Of a DNA stretch of 9,050 nt, positions 883 to 8,521 are shown piece by piece. The position numbers were made by a program, and so were the translations under genes. The stretch comes from Candidatus Wukongarchaeum yapensis (GTDB lineage Archaea > Asgardarchaeota > Wukongarchaeia > Wukongarchaeales > Wukongarchaeaceae), in contig JAEOSI010000077.1 in the NCBI GenBank assembly GCA_016840425.1, forward strand, positions 1 through 9,050, in the 5' to 3' direction. Below the pieces are notes generated by a model that worked only from the letters and a program-made list of their open reading frames with translations, did not search any database and had not been told where the DNA came from. Positions within the stretch are counted from its first letter, which is position 1. Each line of letters begins with the position of its first letter.

Positions 883-1893
883 GTGAAAAGTAGTTTGAGG
901 ATTTCTTTAGGTCTTACTACTGGAATGCGTATAAAAGATGGTTTGGAGTATGCCCAAATAGCGGAGGATAGCGGTTATTATAGGATTTTTGTTGGAGAAG
1001 ATGTGCTTTCGAGAGAGGTTTTTACTTACCTTTCATTGATTTCTTTAAGGACTCAGAGGGTTCTTATTGCTTCAGGTATTGCGGCTTTATTTGCTCGGAA
1101 TGTTGCTTTAATTGCTTCGGGAGCTGCAGGGATGCAAGAGCTAAGCGGTGGAAGGTTTACTTTGGGGATCGGCATAGGCGGTGCGCCTGAAATTGAAAAA
1201 CTAACAGGTAAAAGACCTAAGAAAGCGGGGAAAGTTTTACGGGAAGCAACCACAGTACTTAAAAAGCTTTTCAATAAAGAGAAAGTAACTTATAACGGCT
1301 TTTATGTCGATTTAGACGGCTATGAGCTTGAAATACCTTTTAAAACCCCTCCAGAAATATATTTCGGGGTCAGGGGGCCAAAATTGCTTTCAATTGCTGG
1401 TGAATTAGCAGACGGCGTGATTTTCAGCGGACCCAAAAAATACCTATTCCAAGCAGTAAAGGTATTAGATGAAGCTGCTGAAAAAGCTGGCAAAAACCCA
1501 AAAGAAATAGCTAAAGTTTTATGGAACCCTCTTATGATAGCAGAAAAAGCAGAAGAATTGGAACAAGCCAAAAAAATAGTTGCTACTATAATTTCAACAT
1601 TACCCTCTTTCATATTAAAATACCTTGAAGATCAAAAGGAACAGATAGAAGCAATAAAATCGGTCTATGAAGCAGTAGAATATGGTGGTATGGCGGAGAC
1701 AATAACAGAAGCAAGTAAAAAGGTAACTCCAGAGCTCCTTGACCAGTTCTGCATCACAGGATCCAAAGAAGAAATTATTGAGGCGTTTAAAGAATACCAA
1801 AAAGAAGGGTTTCAAGAATTTATTATAGGACCACCCTACGGCAGCGAACCCAAAAAGGCTATAGCAGCCTTTAAACCTTTTACAGAAGCGTGA
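883..1893 (+). CDS. LLM (luciferase-like/Mer-like) oxidoreductase, probably F420- or flavin-dependent
   Basis: 336 aa with TIM-barrel LLM motifs: AEDSGY..IFVGED, ELSGGRFTLGIG, PEIYFGVRGPKLL.IAGELADGV, and a C-terminal ITGS.EEIIE...EY..EGF. GTG start 9 nt after the cobZ stop. Confidence 0.85.
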   Translation: MKSSLRISLGLTTGMRIKDGLEYAQIAEDSGYYRIFVGEDVLSREVFTYLSLISLRTQRVLIASGIAALFARNVALIASGAAGMQELSGGRFTLGIGIGGAPEIEKLTGKRPKKAGKVLREATTVLKKLFNKEKVTYNGFYVDLDGYELEIPFKTPPEIYFGVRGPKLLSIAGELADGVIFSGPKKYLFQAVKVLDEAAEKAGKNPKEIAKVLWNPLMIAEKAEELEQAKKIVATIISTLPSFILKYLEDQKEQIEAIKSVYEAVEYGGMAETITEASKKVTPELLDQFCITGSKEEIIEAFKEYQKEGFQEFIIGPPYGSEPKKAIAAFKPFTEA

Positions 1894-1897
1894 TAAA

Positions 1898-2770
1898 ATG
1901 GAATATGGAATTAGTTTCATTGGGGGAAAATTTCCTATGAAAGAAACCATAGAAAAAGCAAGCCTTTCAGAAAGGGTTGGATTTGATTATATTTGGGTAG
2001 GGGAATCACCAACTTTTGCGCTACCCTTCGAACTAATAGCAGCCATAGCAGAAAACACGGAGAAAATAACCATAGGCTTAGGGATTATATCCCCTTTACT
2101 CTATAATGATATTCATATAATTAAAGCATTTCAAACTTTAAAGGAGATTCACGGGAACAGGTTTATCATAGGGCTTGGGCCGGGAGACCGGCACCACTTA
2201 GAATCGGTAGGCTTAGAACAGAAAAATTTCTTGAAGAGGATTAGGGAGTGTATTAAAAGCTTAAAAGAGCATAAAGCCACAAAAGATATGCCGGTTTTTG
2301 TGGGGGCAGCGGGTCCAAAAATGATAAAACTTGCAAGTTCTGAATCAGACGGCGTATTACTAAACTATGTTTACCCCACTTTTATTAAATGGTCACTTAA
2401 ACTCTTTAAGGATAAAAATTACACAGTAGCTTATGGACCTTCTTTGGTTTGTCCTGATACGAAAAACAGGAAAAGATTACTGATGGCTACTGCCACTGTA
2501 GCAATAAGTATTCGAGAGGAGATACAAGAAAAATTTGGAATGAAAGAAACTATAGACGAGATCAAAAAAATATTTGAAGAAGGGAATTTCGAAGAAATAT
2601 GGAAATACGAAGTATTTCTCGCCGAAAAATTCGCCTTATGCTCCCCGGTAAGCAAACTAAAAGAAAGAATAAAAGAACTTGAAAAACTGGGAGTAGATCA
2701 AATAATCTTCAGCTATCCATCAAGTCACAATAAAACATCAATAGAAAAGCTCTCAAAAACTTTCTTTTAA
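1898..2770 (+). CDS. Second LLM/Mer-like oxidoreductase (shorter paralogue)
   Basis: 290 aa with ERVGFDYIWVGE, NRFIIGLGPGD (Mer-like GPGD), PVFVGAAGPKMIKLA...SDGVLLN and LEKLGVDQII. Starts 4 nt after the previous stop. Confidence 0.85.
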   Translation: MEYGISFIGGKFPMKETIEKASLSERVGFDYIWVGESPTFALPFELIAAIAENTEKITIGLGIISPLLYNDIHIIKAFQTLKEIHGNRFIIGLGPGDRHHLESVGLEQKNFLKRIRECIKSLKEHKATKDMPVFVGAAGPKMIKLASSESDGVLLNYVYPTFIKWSLKLFKDKNYTVAYGPSLVCPDTKNRKRLLMATATVAISIREEIQEKFGMKETIDEIKKIFEEGNFEEIWKYEVFLAEKFALCSPVSKLKERIKELEKLGVDQIIFSYPSSHNKTSIEKLSKTFF

Positions 2771-2889: not shown

Positions 2890-3378
2890 CTATAGATTCA
2901 CCAGATCTCCATAGTAATGGATTAAAGGTTTTTTGTAATTTGTTCGGGCCGCTATGACTTCAGCTATAAAGATAGTATGGCCTCCTACTTCATGAGACTC
3001 AACAACTTTACATTCAAGGTTTGTATGAGCATTCTTAATTAAAGGGGGCTTTACCTTATTTGCAGGCTCTGTTTCAAGGTTTATTTGAGAGAGTTTATCC
3101 ACATCACGCCCAGAATGGCTGCCACAATACTCTGCATGCTTTTTCCATGTTGGATCAGCTAAAATTCCGTTAATAACGAACTCACCGGTTTTCTTAATGA
3201 TTTCATGTGTATATCTTGAAGGATGAACAGCGATTACTATCATCGGAGGCTTCTCAGAGGCTTGGCAAAAATAACAACCAGTCATGATATTTGATTTACC
3301 ATCCTCATCCATAGTTGTAATGAAATACATGGGGAATGGAAGTCCACTAATAGCTAGGTTTATATCACTTCCAGACAT
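2890..3378 (-). CDS. Flavin reductase-like (split-barrel, DIM6/NTAB family) FMN/F420-binding protein
   Basis: 162 aa with P.YFITT.D.DGK.NIMT, S.KPPMIVIAVHPSRYT.E.I...GEFVIN, SGRDVDK, PPLI.NA..NLECKV and GGHTIFIAEV. RBS GGGTGAT (complement of 3385-3391). Ends in TAG. Confidence 0.88.
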   Translation of the reverse strand: MSGSDINLAISGLPFPMYFITTMDEDGKSNIMTGCYFCQASEKPPMIVIAVHPSRYTHEIIKKTGEFVINGILADPTWKKHAEYCGSHSGRDVDKLSQINLETEPANKVKPPLIKNAHTNLECKVVESHEVGGHTIFIAEVIAARTNYKKPLIHYYGDLVNL

Positions 3379-3940: not shown

Positions 3941-4002
3941 AGGCTTCCCTGGCAGAGATTCTACCGTTACTAAAGTTGAAGAAAAAATTAGGAGGTTTTC
4001 AA

Positions 4003-5046
4003 TTGGTTAAAGTAGCCATCATAGCAGGTTTTTTAGGCTCTGGAAAAACTAGCGTAATTGTCCACATTGGAAAAACTTTGGGAGCGAAATACAAAAAGAA
4101 AGTGGCAATATTAGTAAACGAGATAGGAGAAATTGGCGTGGATGGTAAGTATATTGAGGATTATGGTTTTGAAACGAAGGAGATTACTCAAGGATGTATT
4201 TGTTGCACTTTATCCAGGGATTTAATGAGCACTGTTACAGTTCTAGCTGAGAAGTTTGGCCCTGACGTGATCCTTATCGAGCCTACAGGTGTGGCTTTTC
4301 CCTCAAGAATCAAGCAAATACTGCACGGGTTAATGTTAAAAGAGAAGATAGAAATGGCTCCCCTTATGACGTTGATTGACGGAGGACGTTTTATGCAGCT
4401 TTTCAGGGAGATGGAACGGTTTACCAGGAGACAGATAGAAGATGCGGAAATAATAGTGATAAACAAAAAAGACCTAATCGATTCTAAACAAATGCTCTTA
4501 GTTATAGAAACTTCTGCAAAGCAATTAAACCCTAAGGCTACTATCATGTCAATTTCTGCGAAAAATGAGGAGGGAGTAGATGAATTACTCGAAATAATTC
4601 TTGAGGAAGAGGTCTTAAGTGACCTTACAAAACCAGCAGATCTAGAGGAAGAGGCAGATTCGAAAAGCTTAGCTGGTATGGGTTCTCATGGCGTGGAGAT
4701 TCATTTTCCCCAAGGAAAAAAAGTATCCGGTTTTAAGGATGCCGTAAGCGAACTGTTACAAATAATAGGGCAAAAGGCCGAGGAATTGGGTTCTGAAAGG
4801 ATAGGGCATATAAAAGCAAGCATCAAGACGCCAGAAGGCGTCATGAAAATAAGCCTATTAGACTTGAAAAGAGGTGTTGAGATTAGCGGGAAATCCATCG
4901 ACGAATTTCAGGAAGGCGAGATGTCATTACTAGCGGTAATAGGAGAGCTTAAAGATGAACAAATAGAACAGATCGTGGAAGAAACTATTTCAAAAGTATT
5001 TGGAACTAGAAACATATATTTTGAACTCAAAAACCACGCCCATTAA
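4003..5046 (+). CDS. COG0523/CobW-HypB-UreG (G3E) family P-loop GTPase, probable metallochaperone, with C-terminal GHIKA-type domain
   Basis: Walker A GFLGSGKT, LVNEIGEIGVDG, metal motif GCICC, Walker B IEPTG and G4 INKKD are present, and the protein ends NHAH. Start set at TTG 4003 behind GGAGGT (3991-3996); the ORF track starts at 3976. Confidence 0.88.
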   Translation: MVKVAIIAGFLGSGKTSVIVHIGKTLGAKYKKKVAILVNEIGEIGVDGKYIEDYGFETKEITQGCICCTLSRDLMSTVTVLAEKFGPDVILIEPTGVAFPSRIKQILHGLMLKEKIEMAPLMTLIDGGRFMQLFREMERFTRRQIEDAEIIVINKKDLIDSKQMLLVIETSAKQLNPKATIMSISAKNEEGVDELLEIILEEEVLSDLTKPADLEEEADSKSLAGMGSHGVEIHFPQGKKVSGFKDAVSELLQIIGQKAEELGSERIGHIKASIKTPEGVMKISLLDLKRGVEISGKSIDEFQEGEMSLLAVIGELKDEQIEQIVEETISKVFGTRNIYFELKNHAH

Positions 5047-5070
5047 CTAATGAGTTAAAAAGATAAGTGC

Positions 5071-5106
5071 TTGACCTCCTCCTCAAACAGCTAAAGCAGT
5101 TGGATT
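5071..5106 (-). mobile_element. IS200/IS605-family right end (subterminal hairpin + TCAA terminus)
   Basis: The - strand reads AATCC-AACTGC-TTTA-GCTGTT-TGAGGAGGAGG-TCAA. This matches the known layout of IS605-group right ends (imperfect hairpin with TTTA loop, GAGG, TCAA cleavage motif), as I recall for ISDra2. Confidence 0.75.
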
Positions 5107-5413
5107 ACTCTGTTGGTAAGCCGTTTCCTAACAAGCTTTTTGGTTCTTGCTCCTCTTTCTTCAAGCCTTTCAAAGGGGTGGTTTCCGCTTGTTTGTCCAA
5201 CCAAGGGAGAAGCACGGGTTTAGTCACTTGCCCGCTAGCGTTATCCCTTTCGCCAGCATGAGCTTCGCGCTTATCGCCGCTTTGCGGATGTCATCGCACC
5301 CTTTTCGCTTAAGGGAACAGCATAGAGGCCTGTACTGATTGATATCGTCCTCGTCTTACCTGCCCTACCACCATGCTGTGCGGCAATGACCAGATTCAGA
5401 AAAGCGAAAATCT
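5071..5413 (-). ncRNA. Candidate structured RNA (TnpB omega/reRNA-like) or non-autonomous IS200/IS605 derivative with no ORF
   Basis: GC-rich (35/60 G+C in 5221-5280 vs 15/60 in 5401-5460) with many stems. G-U wobbles form on the - strand. Contains GAGCAAGAACC, similar to the GAAGCAGGAACC seen in TnpB 3' regions, and ends at the IS right end. No credible ORF on either strand. Confidence 0.55.
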
Positions 5414-5436
5414 ATACTAATCTATCACATTCATCC

Positions 5437-5471
5437 AAAAACAAAAAAATAAGAAGAAAGTAAGGAAAAAA
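5437..5471 (-). terminator. Oligo-T tracts downstream of ramA (archaeal-type terminator)
   Basis: The - strand has T6 (5466-5471) and T7-G-T5 (5437-5449) within 60 nt after the ramA stop. Confidence 0.45.
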
Positions 5472-5495: not shown

Positions 5496-7160
5496 TTAGG
5501 TTTTTGCTTGGGTTACCTCCATCTTCTTCGCGATTTTTTCTGCGCTGTGTTCTAACATGTGGAAATTAAATACGTGTTCTGGGCACACTTTTTCACATCT
5601 GACGCAAGCACTGCCGTCGCAGAGGTCACTTAATACAAAAATCTTCGGGAAGTCGTAGAATATTGCGTCTTCTGGACATTCTTCAGCACATTTTTCGCAC
5701 TCTGTGCATCCTTCAAACTCAGCAACAAGTGTGACACCTATTTCCTTTAACACTTTTAAGCCCATTTCTCCAACGTCTGGAATGTCACGCTTAAGCTTCT
5801 TTTCAATTTTTGTCGTTTTTGATGGGGGCGGTATCTCTTGGATTTTTTTAAATTTGAGCATCTGGTTATACATTTGGAAAGGCATGCCCTCGTCCCAGTA
5901 TGCTAGCTCTTGCAAGTAAGCAAACTCAAAGACTGGCGCTGTTGCGAACATCACGTGTTTTGCTCTCATTTCGTCGGCTATTTTTTGAAGCCTGTCTAGG
6001 AGGCTTGGATCTCTGACTAGGTCTACGGCCATTGCTAGCGATGTGTTGCCTACCTGGTATATTCTTTCTGAAGTTGCAGGGATTTGGCCGACCATTTTAG
6101 ATTTTACTGCGTCCACATATGTTCCAGCTGCTCCACACATGTACATCTCGTTAACATCGTTCAGCGTTATGCCTGCCTCTTCCACTAAAGTTATGTGTCC
6201 TGCCCTGAAAGCTCCGAGCGCTTTTCCTGCTTCAAGAACGTCTTTCTCCGTGATTCTTACTCCATCTTGTAGATGAAGGATTTTATCTGAAGTATCAATT
6301 TTCGGCAATTTTATTAACCCACTATCTAAGCCATAAGCAATTGCCGCTATTACCCCTGTACCTGTAACGCCTTTTGCTTTACCGTGCATAGGTCCTTCTT
6401 CTATCACTTTTCCTACGGATGTGTTTATAAGGTCACCTTTCTGGGCTAGGATGTTTTCGTCTAAGACTATGCACCGGTAATATGCGCCCTCTTGTTGTAA
6501 GTCGGATATTGCTCCTGGAGCCGCCAGCATTCCATCCTCTATATGTTGTCCTTCTATGGCTGGTCCTGCTGCTGCCGAGCCACTGTATATGTCTCCATCG
6601 ACTTTGAGGGCGATTTCGGCGTTGGTGCCGAAGTCGGTGACAAGGGCTATCTCTTTTGTTTCAAGAAAGCCGCTTTTGAACATCATGGCTAAAGCATCAG
6701 CCCCGATCTCGTGGCGGATAGCTGGAGGGATTATGACATCAGCGTCGGGATTTATGTTTAACTTTAGATCGCTTGCTTTAAGGATCGTGGCATTTCTGCT
6801 TGGGGGGACGACTCCTTCGAGTTCAAGTTTCTTTTTTCCCGCCCATGCGAGGTCCCTGATCTCTATGTTTTGAAAAATTGAGAGCTGGATTGGGTTGCCG
6901 CAAACAGCAGCTCTTTCAACTTCTTCTAAGTTGACATCAAGTTGCTCAAACAAAGTGGCTATTGTGTCCAACATTAAGGCATTTGCTACATCTTCGCTGA
7001 CCTCTACAGCAAAGTGGAGGTGATCCATAACGTTAGCTCCTGGGACGGGGTGTCTTAAAGTGATTGCGGTTGATAAAATTTTACCAGTATTGAGATCGAT
7101 AGATTGTGCCCTAAAACCACTAGTCCCTAGGTCAAAACCAATTCCAAGACGCAAAACCAT
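5496..7160 (-). CDS. ramA: Methylamine methyltransferase corrinoid protein reductive activase RamA (ASKHA ATPase + C-terminal 2x[4Fe-4S] ferredoxin domain)
   Basis: N-terminal DLGTSGFRAQ, HPVPGANVMDHLHFA, AVCGNPIQLSIFQNIEIRDLA, HEIGADALA, DFGTNAE, GSAAAGPAIEGQ. C-terminal CTECEKCAEECP and CDGSACVRCEKVCP. Start is ATG 7160 (or GTG 7163 / TTG 7154). Confidence 0.92.
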   Translation of the reverse strand: MVLRLGIGFDLGTSGFRAQSIDLNTGKILSTAITLRHPVPGANVMDHLHFAVEVSEDVANALMLDTIATLFEQLDVNLEEVERAAVCGNPIQLSIFQNIEIRDLAWAGKKKLELEGVVPPSRNATILKASDLKLNINPDADVIIPPAIRHEIGADALAMMFKSGFLETKEIALVTDFGTNAEIALKVDGDIYSGSAAAGPAIEGQHIEDGMLAAPGAISDLQQEGAYYRCIVLDENILAQKGDLINTSVGKVIEEGPMHGKAKGVTGTGVIAAIAYGLDSGLIKLPKIDTSDKILHLQDGVRITEKDVLEAGKALGAFRAGHITLVEEAGITLNDVNEMYMCGAAGTYVDAVKSKMVGQIPATSERIYQVGNTSLAMAVDLVRDPSLLDRLQKIADEMRAKHVMFATAPVFEFAYLQELAYWDEGMPFQMYNQMLKFKKIQEIPPPSKTTKIEKKLKRDIPDVGEMGLKVLKEIGVTLVAEFEGCTECEKCAEECPEDAIFYDFPKIFVLSDLCDGSACVRCEKVCPEHVFNFHMLEHSAEKIAKKMEVTQAKT

Positions 7161-7227
7161 CACCTAATTTCTATTACATTTAAATTGATTTGAGTTAGTT
7201 ATCTTGGGAACATGTTTAATTTTTGAT

Positions 7228-7333: not shown

Positions 7334-7752
7334 GAACGTTTATTCGGTTAACCCTTTATTTCTTTTTCTGCAAGAAAAGAAAAAAATTCGAAAACTGTAC
7401 TGAGGTTGTTGTCAGAGGGGTTTCCCCCCTTGCTCGGAGAGGGATTCAAAAAAGGATTATGCTCCAGCGGGCTGTGAAACGATTCAAAGACCTGTTGAGA
7501 AAGGCTTTGATAATGAGAACAGGTAAGGAACTGCACACTATCAGCGAACATTACACCCCTTAAATATGCCCAAGATGTAATGCAAAAGGAAAAGAATAAA
7601 AGGTGGAGAGAATAGGACAGGCTGTTATAAGATGTGGTAATTGCGGTTATGAAAACACAGACCTCGTAGGCGCCATAAACATAAAAACAAAAAAATACAG
7701 GAACAAACTTTTAGATGAAATAGAAATGGAATATAGGAGGAAAAAAACGTAA
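7333..7752 (+). pseudogene. tnpB: TnpB / Cas12f-like RNA-guided nuclease pseudogene, C-terminal half only
   Basis: Frame 1 translates ..EVVVRGVSPLARRG..KRFKDLLRKAL...GKELHTISEHYTP*ICPRC..KGKE*..IRCGNCGYENTDLVGAINI..*. This is the TnpB order of RuvC-II region, YTS-x-x-CPxC/CxxCG zinc ribbon and RuvC-III DxxxAxNI. In-frame TAA at 7561-7563 and 7597-7599, AGA (Arg) at 7414-7416 where the RuvC-II Glu is expected, and no N-terminal half. Confidence 0.85.
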
Positions 7753-7861: not shown

Positions 7862-8521
7862 TTATTTGATGAGGCTTTTAGCTTCTTCTACGCTTTTTAA
7901 GACATCGTTCTCTAGGAGATCTATTTCTTTATCCAGTCCCTTTAAATCCTTATTTAGCAAGCCTCCACCCATGATTATTTTCACTTTTCCCCTTAATCCT
8001 TCTTTTTTTAAGCGTTCTATGATCTTTTTTATTGTGGGTATTGTCACAGTATATTCCGCAGATATTACTAGTAGATTCGCATCCATTTCCTTTATTTTTT
8101 TTACGATCATATCAGGAGATGCTGGTTGGCGGAAGTTGTATACATTAAAACCGTTGACTTTGAACAATGGCGCTAAGACCTCTTTTACCATTATGTGACC
8201 CTCACCTGTAACACAAGCAACTATTGCTTTGCCTATTGGGGGGTCTGGTACTTTAATATTTGCATCTATCTCCATTGAGAGCCTATACAAGGTCATAAGG
8301 GATTCTGTCCATTTTTTCATTGCCTCTTTTTCTTCTTCGCTAAACTCTGGAACTGAACATATTGCCTCTCCTATTTCTAAAACTGCTTTTAAAACACCAT
8401 TCTCTAAAATAGTTTTGATATCAGTATCTTGGTTTAAAAGCGTTCTAAGGCTTGAAGAGGCTTTACTACTATCCCCCTCTTTAAGGCTCTCAATTAGTTC
8501 TTTTAAGGCTGGGTTATCCAT
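7862..8521 (-). CDS. Cobalamin-binding (corrinoid) protein, MtbC/MtmC-like two-domain architecture with a non-canonical B12 motif
   Basis: 219 aa: helical cap, then GKAIVACVTGEGHIMVKEV..LF..NGFNVY, LLVISAEYTVT, LKKEGLRGKVKIIMGGG. RBS GAGGAG upstream. Confidence 0.85.
   Translation of the reverse strand: MDNPALKELIESLKEGDSSKASSSLRTLLNQDTDIKTILENGVLKAVLEIGEAICSVPEFSEEEKEAMKKWTESLMTLYRLSMEIDANIKVPDPPIGKAIVACVTGEGHIMVKEVLAPLFKVNGFNVYNFRQPASPDMIVKKIKEMDANLLVISAEYTVTIPTIKKIIERLKKEGLRGKVKIIMGGGLLNKDLKGLDKEIDLLENDVLKSVEEAKSLIK

Follow-up and report, generated by a model that had tools for sequence, protein, structure and literature searches.

A probable PATE-like IS200/IS605 mini-element with a putative long omega-RNA-like transcript in the Asgard archaeon Candidatus Wukongarchaeum yapensis

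Introduction

Guide RNAs of the RNA-guided nuclease TnpB are known as omega-RNAs or right-end RNAs (reRNAs), and in the canonical ones, those of IS605/IS1341 elements such as ISDra2 (PMC8612924, PMC10097598), a scaffold is followed by the right end of the transposon and then by the guide. Stand-alone omega-RNAs that lack an effector gene and act in trans have been described (work summarised in PMC10691335), and the protein-less elements termed PATEs "often encode omega-RNAs" (bioRxiv 10.1101/2023.03.14.532601). IStrons, which are IS605/IS607 elements, join a structured RNA module, a group I intron by the left end, to an omega-RNA-type right end, and minimal versions without an open reading frame (ORF) exist that splice (bioRxiv 10.1101/2023.11.20.567912). 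Here we describe a locus on the minus strand of contig JAEOSI010000077.1 (C56) of Candidatus Wukongarchaeum yapensis, at about positions 5071–5459 of a 9,050-nt stretch of DNA that is referred to as the window, which is very probably a protein-less mini-element of the IS200/IS605 family. An original prediction, made from the window alone, had proposed a stand-alone TnpB guide RNA at this place. The genome (G000; 2.16 Mb in 277 contigs, 92% complete) was compared with a sister genome (G001) and with other Asgard genomes; contigs given without a genome label are those of the host genome, g1 denotes its genus and g18 a genus of a different Asgard family.

The idea of a stand-alone guide RNA is already known. 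Like the stand-alone omega-RNAs and PATEs, the window locus has neither tnpA nor tnpB, its subterminal left-end and right-end hairpins are of the kind found in co-resident tnpB elements, its scaffold ends at the right end so that the guide would come from the flank, genes for candidate effectors and for a Y1 transposase lie at other places in the genome, and the element is absent from the orthologous site of a close relative. Unlike these, it resides in an Asgard host, its predicted RNA is ~315 nt long, a conserved and structured 5' domain of 130–175 nt that is unrelated to tnpB takes the place of the ORF behind the left-end promoter, the left end of the window copy is damaged, and no tnpB-linked element with the scaffold of the g1 copies was found in 400 Asgard genomes. 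Like canonical omega-RNAs, it has the order of scaffold, right end and guide, and tnpB genes of the host genome are followed by a terminal hairpin and tail homologous to its own. Unlike them, it does not overlap the 3' coding end of a tnpB gene, it has about twice the usual scaffold length, and its guide role is predicted.

In IS608 of Helicobacter pylori, TTAC lies 5' of the left end, AAAG beside the left-end hairpin, TCAA at the right end and (G/U)AAU beside the right-end hairpin, and the right end is cleaved 10–13 nt after the hairpin; such pairing of tetranucleotides is how the DNA guide of the Y1 transposase reads the cleavage site. The same TTAC/AAAG and TCAA/AAU layout is seen in the family of the window locus, which differs from IS608 in that the window element holds no transposase and the hairpin sequences are unrelated.

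Results

A GC-rich island at 5071–5391 of the minus strand (GC 0.50–0.54 against 0.33–0.44 in the flanks) lies between the convergent genes of a CobW-type GTPase (3976–5046, plus strand) and of the activase RACo/RamA (5496–7163, minus strand; both by Pfam). Its tnpB-type ends, together with its absence from orthologous sites, identify the locus as a protein-less mini-element, PATE-like and IS608-like, that derives in all likelihood from a TTAC-targeting TnpB element. The right end (5071–5103) consists of the terminal hairpin CCAACUGCUUUAGCUGUUUG at 5084–5103 and a tail that ends in UCAA (5071–5074), and the same hairpin, loop and tail follow tnpB ORFs of the host genome. When a hidden Markov model (HMM) of the three g1 copies was run with nhmmer, the terminal ~40–50 nt were matched at at least 8 other sites in this genome; the matches on C7 (836–872), C135 and C235/C23 lie directly downstream of tnpB ORFs, and one at C7:3440 closes a ~280-bp protein-less element whose left end is at C7:3241. 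These ends have one unit in common, in which a 10-nt tail comes after a hairpin whose loop is CUUUAG (consensus ...GTGGGAGGATGTCAG), and the earlier claim of a genuine IS200/IS605-type right end is borne out by the position of this unit directly behind tnpB. Three of the five ends compared show a correspondence between the tetranucleotide that precedes the hairpin and the terminal one, AAU/AAT going with TCAA (window, C75) and GAAC with TCAG (tnpB ends). Two copies depart from that pairing, namely those on C12 (GAAC with GTTAG, or GACAA) and on G001:C4 (GACC with CCAG).

The original prediction had missed a decayed left end and a TATA-like box at 5412–5459. The left end (5422–5459, minus strand) comprises the 3' half of a hairpin and the tail GGATGAATGTGATAG (5422–5436), a motif common to the paralogue on C12 and to intact tnpB elements (G000:C235, G316:C37). 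On C12 this upstream motif forms the tail of a hairpin that is complete (GCAGAAAG-CCAACGG...CGTTGG) and lies 13 nt after TTAC; the hairpin is also complete in the G001:C4 copy, and both are of the same type as the left end of the C235 tnpB element. The same left end precedes an intact tnpB gene of 416 aa on C235, and its g18 version precedes the 396-aa tnpB of G316:C37 (Pfam). In every intact left end (C12, C246, C235, C91, G001:C7, G001:C99 and the g18 elements) TTAC stands 13 nt before the GCAGAAAG-hairpin and is accompanied by AAAG. The window has TTAC at 5460–5463 (minus strand), just outside the left end, which is a tentative candidate for the target tetranucleotide or transposon-associated motif (TAM), given that it stands before a shortened left end. 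The family thus has subterminal imperfect palindromes like those of the co-resident tnpB and tnpA elements, of which the window copy keeps the 3' half and tail at its left end, and by sequence it has target, cleavage and guide tetranucleotides without terminal inverted repeats, the right ends of C12 and G001:C4 being outside the simple pairing. A Y1 tnpA gene of 152 aa that could serve elements without an internal gene lies on C70, in an IS605-type element of the same left-end layout (TTAC, AAAG, hairpin, ATGAAT).

Upstream of the RNA all copies carry the motif GGATGAATG.GATAG, followed by an A/T box that ends in ATAG. This box, TTAGTATAG in the window (5412–5420, minus strand), lies 19–22 nt before GGTCAT in all five homologues, and in the intact element of G316:C37 the same box is found upstream of the tnpB start codon, where it would serve as the TATA box of tnpB itself. 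It is a putative archaeal promoter borne by the left end, from which transcription would start at GGUCAU near 5391.

Further copies with unrelated 3' flanks, which the original prediction had proposed to look for, were found. The genome has a paralogue on C12 that is 77% identical to the window copy, and the sister genome has one copy, on G001:C4, that is 75% identical. These three g1 copies are 75–79% identical to each other and lie in unrelated contexts, and homology among them stops at the right-end tail, as for a scaffold that ends at a transposon right end with a variable flank as guide. Distant homologues were found in g18 (G040:C8 and G316:C91). A covariance model of the 5' part (R1) returned exactly these five loci among 151 Asgard genomes, and a second model (R2) returned right-end fragments only from the same set; the only weaker R2 match that was inspected (G285:C27) lies inside an ABC-transporter gene and is false. 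A pattern for the penultimate hairpin found only C12, G001:C4 and an orphan fragment in G002 among 400 genomes. Pattern scans of public genome contigs gave only the metagenome-assembled genome of the sister, two metagenome scans gave two contigs identical to G316:C91 and two chance matches, and one scan of a viral collection gave no homologue. On the evidence of these searches the RNA family is rare.

At the orthologous site in the sister genome (G001:C6) the spacer between cobW and ramA is only ~80 nt long and the ~400-bp element is absent; the insertion boundaries are not resolvable to the base against this empty site, as the AT-rich spacer has diverged. The element is likewise absent from the site that corresponds to C12 (G001:C128), where other DNA is present, so that presence/absence polymorphism, as in non-autonomous IS200/IS605 elements, is seen at both sites. 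The G001:C4 copy precedes a gene for D-aminoacyl-tRNA deacylase (Pfam), and the equivalent region of the host genome, on C173, is a deleted pseudogene region that offers no clean empty site: a comparison of G000:C173:3223–3554 with positions 668–1945 of the G001:C4 locus (L003) showed the deacylase gene reduced to short fragments, which indicates a pseudogene or a deletion. All three g1 insertions are intergenic. Reads from four metagenome DNA runs showed that three strains hold the element at the same place as the window, and neither an empty-site contig nor a joint skipping the element was found in these runs; short A-rich read matches at 5437–5471 were discarded as low-complexity noise.

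These distributions bear on whether the locus might be an ordinary host RNA gene, such as a signal recognition particle (SRP) RNA, an RNase P RNA or a cis-regulatory element of the ramA 3' untranslated region (UTR), that resembles insertion sequence ends by chance. The length of ~315 nt is that of an archaeal SRP RNA, and the host genome returned no SRP RNA match, which is best put down to its 92% completeness. On the other side the RNase P RNA maps to C123, canonical SRP RNAs map elsewhere in G001, G040 and G030, genomes that carry or lack the window RNA independently, the sister lacks the element at its ramA locus, diverged copies number two per genome, and tnpB elements share the ends. This reading is already contradicted by the location of the SRP and RNase P RNAs and by the empty sister locus, and we regard it as scarcely tenable.

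The island contains no ORF of note, and each frame of the RNA-sense strand holds 4–7 stops. Indels between the copies measure 1, 2 and 4 nt; they are not multiples of three and would break any frame. Together with the contrast in GC this upholds the description of an ORF-less, GC-rich island, and the locus is protein-less in that no protein-coding gene lies inside the element. The original prediction had itself named one result that would overturn it, namely that the RNA is the decayed, frameshifted 3' coding end of a tnpB gene; a tblastn search that used every tnpB open frame of the genome, and blastn and blastn-short searches against intact family-D elements, found no coding relic outside the terminal hairpin. 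The one significant tblastn match for a tnpB relic proved to be an antisense family-A tail nested in the G040:C8 copy, which is not part of the window's family. In that copy (L004) the remnant lies at ~1245–1325, antisense to the RNA, and is the C-terminal part of a tnpB of another family (family A), reading GRREFTPVEIRPP*PVKGIESVVEAGS against ...GLSEFTPVEIEPLPREISASSVVEAGS; it accounts for the greater length of the G040 copy relative to that of G316:C91.

The same results weigh on the view that the locus is an inert wreck, i.e. a decaying and non-functional rest of a tnpB element (3' coding end plus right end) whose RNA has no function. The left end of the window copy is indeed decayed, truncated tnpB elements, solo ends and deletion derivatives abound in the genome (e.g. 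C246, C75, C84 and window positions 7516–7683), and one marsh strain diverges by ~5% in the RNA against ~2% in the ramA coding sequence. Set against this are the lack of a coding relic in the tblastn and blastn searches, a GC content 10–15 points above that of both flanks and of coding DNA, the retention of promoter box, spacing and RNA start in five loci of two families, and compensatory and wobble changes that keep helices. A wreck of this kind is accordingly judged unlikely, and the mini-element with a structured RNA is preferred.

All complementary segments that had been listed for the minus strand were recovered at their coordinates, and the arms 5317–5328/5368–5379 and 5203–5211/5241–5249 were also found independently. 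Comparison between copies supports the helices 5371–5379/5317–5325, 5349–5352/5325–5328, 5215–5218/5231–5234 and 5111–5133 and the terminal hairpin at 5084–5103. The helix 5215–5218/5231–5234, for instance, is CGGG/CCCG in the window and CGAG/CUCG in the paralogue. One listed helix, GCUGGCG/CGCUAGC (5234–5257), is present in the window; the paralogue lacks it and has at that place a conserved AGCGC/GCGCU stem that closes an AAGGGAUA loop. The AAGGGA/UCCCUU pseudoknot once suggested can form in the other copies only via a shifted UCUCU with a G-U pair. Within g1, 19 of the 33 variable predicted pairs are canonical in all three copies (5–12 in controls), and paired columns vary less than unpaired ones (26% vs 42%). 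Pairing is preserved or restored by strain variants at 5323, 5328, 5372 and 5291+5296 that were seen in metagenome contigs. The middle and 3' scaffold (5104–5233, minus strand), conserved in the three g1 copies, comprises the hairpin at 5215–5234, a long stem region, the penultimate hairpin at 5111–5133 and then UAAU (5104–5107). Most changes in its stems maintain pairing, and the long stem at 5150–5211 is an alternative to the pairing of the AAGGGA loop with UCCCUU or UCUCU. Orphan fragments of the last ~100 nt are present on G002:C18, G000:C75 and G001:C30.

The 5' domain (5234–5391, minus strand) starts with GGUCAU, encloses the invariant G-rich loop UGGUGGUAGGG.GGGUAAGAC in a helix, and continues with the hairpin that carries the AAGGGAUA loop. 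It measures ~130–175 nt (~190 nt in g18) and was found only in five loci of two Asgard genera. Between g1 and g18 it shows four compensatory pairs, against 0–1 in controls with slid partners; its first 40 nt are ~88% conserved across the families, more than the rest, with an invariant G-rich loop of 20 nt, and its second hairpin keeps an (A)AGGGAUA loop on differing stems (AGCGC/GCGCU vs CAGAGG/CCUCUG). The domain, which bears no resemblance to tnpB genes, follows the promoter immediately and occupies the position of the ORF. A cmscan with Rfam release 15, which took in Archaea_SRP, RNaseP_arch, Intron_gpI and the IS605- and HNH-associated RNA families, gave no match in the window at E-values up to 1 and no relevant match to a 461-nt stretch or to the g18 homologue at E-values up to 10; the only matches were vertebrate long non-coding RNA models, which are noise.

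In the g18 mini-elements the order is left end, TATA box, the ~190-nt homologous 5' domain, the last 33 tnpB codons (VNIGLAQ...RPSFLTIEV*), 3' tail and right end. From the tnpB codons onward they represent the omega-RNA scaffold that belongs to the co-resident tnpB, in a version that departs from that of the intact gene by pair-keeping changes, e.g. CCCCAC/GUGGG vs CCUCAC/GUGAG. As to homology of the scaffold with a tnpB 3' end, the g18 mini-elements contain a tnpB tail, and in the window only the last ~40–50 nt match tnpB-linked right ends of the host genome, the rest having no tnpB-linked homologue in 400 Asgard genomes; the last two hairpins and right-end tail of the window RNA share their layout with the omega-RNAs of co-resident tnpB elements.

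It is against this background that a role of the RNA other than as TnpB guide has to be considered, in which a mobile RNA-only element would carry a decoy or regulator of TnpB or TnpA, a ribozyme for processing or stabilisation, or a cargo RNA between insertion sequence ends. The 5' domain is unrelated to tnpB and to Rfam families, it is the part most conserved across the two families and it holds the invariant loop, and the g1 scaffold has no tnpB-linked counterpart, all of which would suit such a role. The fusion of the domain to a complete, pair-keeping omega-RNA scaffold in g18 and the retained omega-RNA layout of the last two hairpins and tail in g1 speak for a guide instead, and no ribozyme model matches, which leaves this alternative rather improbable. 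An intron at the left end, excising the element from host transcripts such as the ramA 3' UTR in the manner of IStrons, would agree with the known combination of left-end intron and right-end omega-RNA, with the splicing of minimal ORF-less versions (bioRxiv 10.1101/2023.11.20.567912) and with the orientation of the element, which is that of ramA and places it inside the ramA transcription unit between the ramA stop codon and a T-run terminator. No group I or II intron model matches, however, even at E-values up to 10 on the short stretch, the TATA promoter is placed upstream of the module, after the left-end hairpin and before the RNA, and splicing brings no benefit at the three intergenic g1 insertions; we consider an IStron-like element very unlikely. 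A more far-reaching proposal, that the 5' domain is a new functional RNA module making the omega-RNA a self-sufficient RNA-only selfish element (as a ribozyme for processing or stabilising, or as a handle for a second protein), or that the whole 315-nt RNA is the guide of an unrecognised effector other than classical TnpB, is given a low probability.

For a TnpB-type guide RNA the flank at 5051–5070 (minus strand) would supply the guide. It contains a run of five T residues (T5) at 5057–5061, a likely archaeal terminator; the empty site of the sister genome has the T run too, which marks it as the terminator of ramA itself. The guide had been put at 5070–5051; of these 20 nt, termination at the T5 run would leave at most ~14 nt. 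When targets in trans were sought for the predicted guides in the host genome, none with a full match and TTAC was found, and this fits selfish homing rather than control of host genes. As to candidate effectors, the genome has 31 matches to the TnpB Zn-ribbon, several of them in open frames of 379–459 aa; its intact tnpB genes include those of 416 aa on C235, 415/424 aa on C5/C117 and 412 aa on C59.

Several neighbours of the element were recorded. Pfam assigns the genes at window positions 883–2770, 2890–3378, 3976–5046, 5496–7163 and 7862–8521 to two luciferase-like (F420-type) oxidoreductases, a flavin reductase, the CobW GTPase, the RACo/RamA activase with a ferredoxin tail and a B12-binding protein, which together are read as a corrinoid methyltransferase activation cluster. 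No tRNA or tmRNA was found in the window, and a scan of it for sigma-70 promoters and intrinsic terminators, which is unsuited to an archaeon, gave nothing. The operon region contains a second IS200/IS605 relic, placed between the start of ramA and the gene of the B12-binding corrinoid protein (7862–8521, minus strand); it is a decayed C-terminal tnpB fragment at 7440–7752 (plus strand, core 7516–7683) with a Zn-ribbon (CPRC...CGNCG, ...DLVGAINI) and in-frame TAA stops.

Other elements of the family were noted in the host genome. The element at G000:C70:7440–8568 (plus strand) is apparently autonomous and of IS605 type, with TTAC, left-end hairpin, TATA box, the 152-aa Y1 tnpA and a family-D-like tnpB that runs off the contig end; its tnpA is the only intact one found in the genome. 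A protein-less derivative with the same left end lies at G000:C7:3195–3475 (plus strand), its left and right ends ~220 nt apart and with a family-C omega-RNA tail, and an internally deleted one at G000:C246:2512–3068 (minus strand) consists of left end, pieces of the tnpB 3' part and right end. At G000:C84:3720–3777 (plus strand) a single hairpin is preceded by left-end sequence (TTTTAC, AAAAAATATCGCAGAAAGCC...) and runs straight into a right-end tail (GGGATTATGTCAG). This one-hairpin left-end/right-end junction might represent the smallest derivative, or else what is left of an excised circle junction.

Discussion

The comparisons favour a protein-less mini-element that encodes a stand-alone TnpB-type guide RNA, a combined reading that we hold to be probable. 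Of the original prediction the right end and the protein-less nature of the locus have held up, and the left-end motif and promoter of tnpB elements can be added; that the window RNA acts as a guide is a prediction still. Use of the RNA by TnpB in trans is a tentative proposal, to which we give somewhat less than even chances. In such a mechanism the element, which retains the left-end tail, its own TATA promoter, a ~315-nt non-coding structured RNA from GGUCAU (~5391) and the right end (hairpin 5084–5103, UCAA at 5071), would start transcription from the left-end promoter near 5391, and the RNA would cross scaffold and right end into the flank and stop in the T5 run at 5057–5061. The transcript would then consist of the scaffold and ~10–14 nt of flank as guide (GCACUUAUCU...). 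A TnpB encoded elsewhere in the genome would load this RNA and cut empty sites flanked by TTAC (predicted target TTAC + GCACTTATCT...), and cutting of empty sites would favour retention of the element as an RNA-only hitch-hiker, of a kind on record for stand-alone omega-RNAs and PATEs.

A number of observations weigh against this picture. The identity of 75–79% among the three copies is unlike that expected of a recent burst. The left end of the window copy has lost the 5' half of its hairpin and the AAAG guide, being ~16 nt shorter at 5437–5459 than intact left ends, and with half of the hairpin gone the copy is probably immobile and no longer excisable by TnpA. Termination at the T5 run would leave a guide of about 10–14 nt, which is short. 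Beyond the last ~50–100 nt the 3' scaffold of the window matches no tnpB-linked omega-RNA, be it in the host genome or in the 400 Asgard genomes, and no cognate TnpB was identified for the RNA. The fold of the single sequence is no more stable than that of shuffled sequences (z = +0.69 for the minus strand, +0.41 for the plus strand), so that the structure rests on comparison and not on energy, and with covariation drawn from five homologues only the statistics are weak. A predicted pair is lost at 5240 in a strain variant of low depth, and no compensation accompanies the four changes grouped at 5201–5206. The latter (C>A, C>T, A>G and G>A, turning UCCCUUGG into UCUCCUAU) are common to two marsh metagenome strains and bring the sequence nearer to the C12 and G001 paralogues; gene conversion between the paralogues may lie behind them, or the loop may be a variable one.

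The locus is best described as a fossil PATE-like IS200/IS605 mini-element that would encode a long omega-RNA-like transcript. For annotation this means that the GC-rich, ORF-less island by the corrinoid-methyltransferase activation operon is to be taken as mobile-element debris and not as a regulator of ramA. The locus also shows that IS200/IS605 elements of Asgard archaea, with their tnpB-rich genomes, can lose the protein gene while promoter, RNA and ends are retained. The RNA kept is more than the usual tnpB tail, having an extra structured domain that is conserved across two families. Should the 5' domain have an activity of its own, it would constitute a new RNA module. If the RNA does load TnpB in trans, the family would be a natural case of guide-only parasitism of an RNA-guided nuclease and a source of long archaeal scaffolds for engineering.

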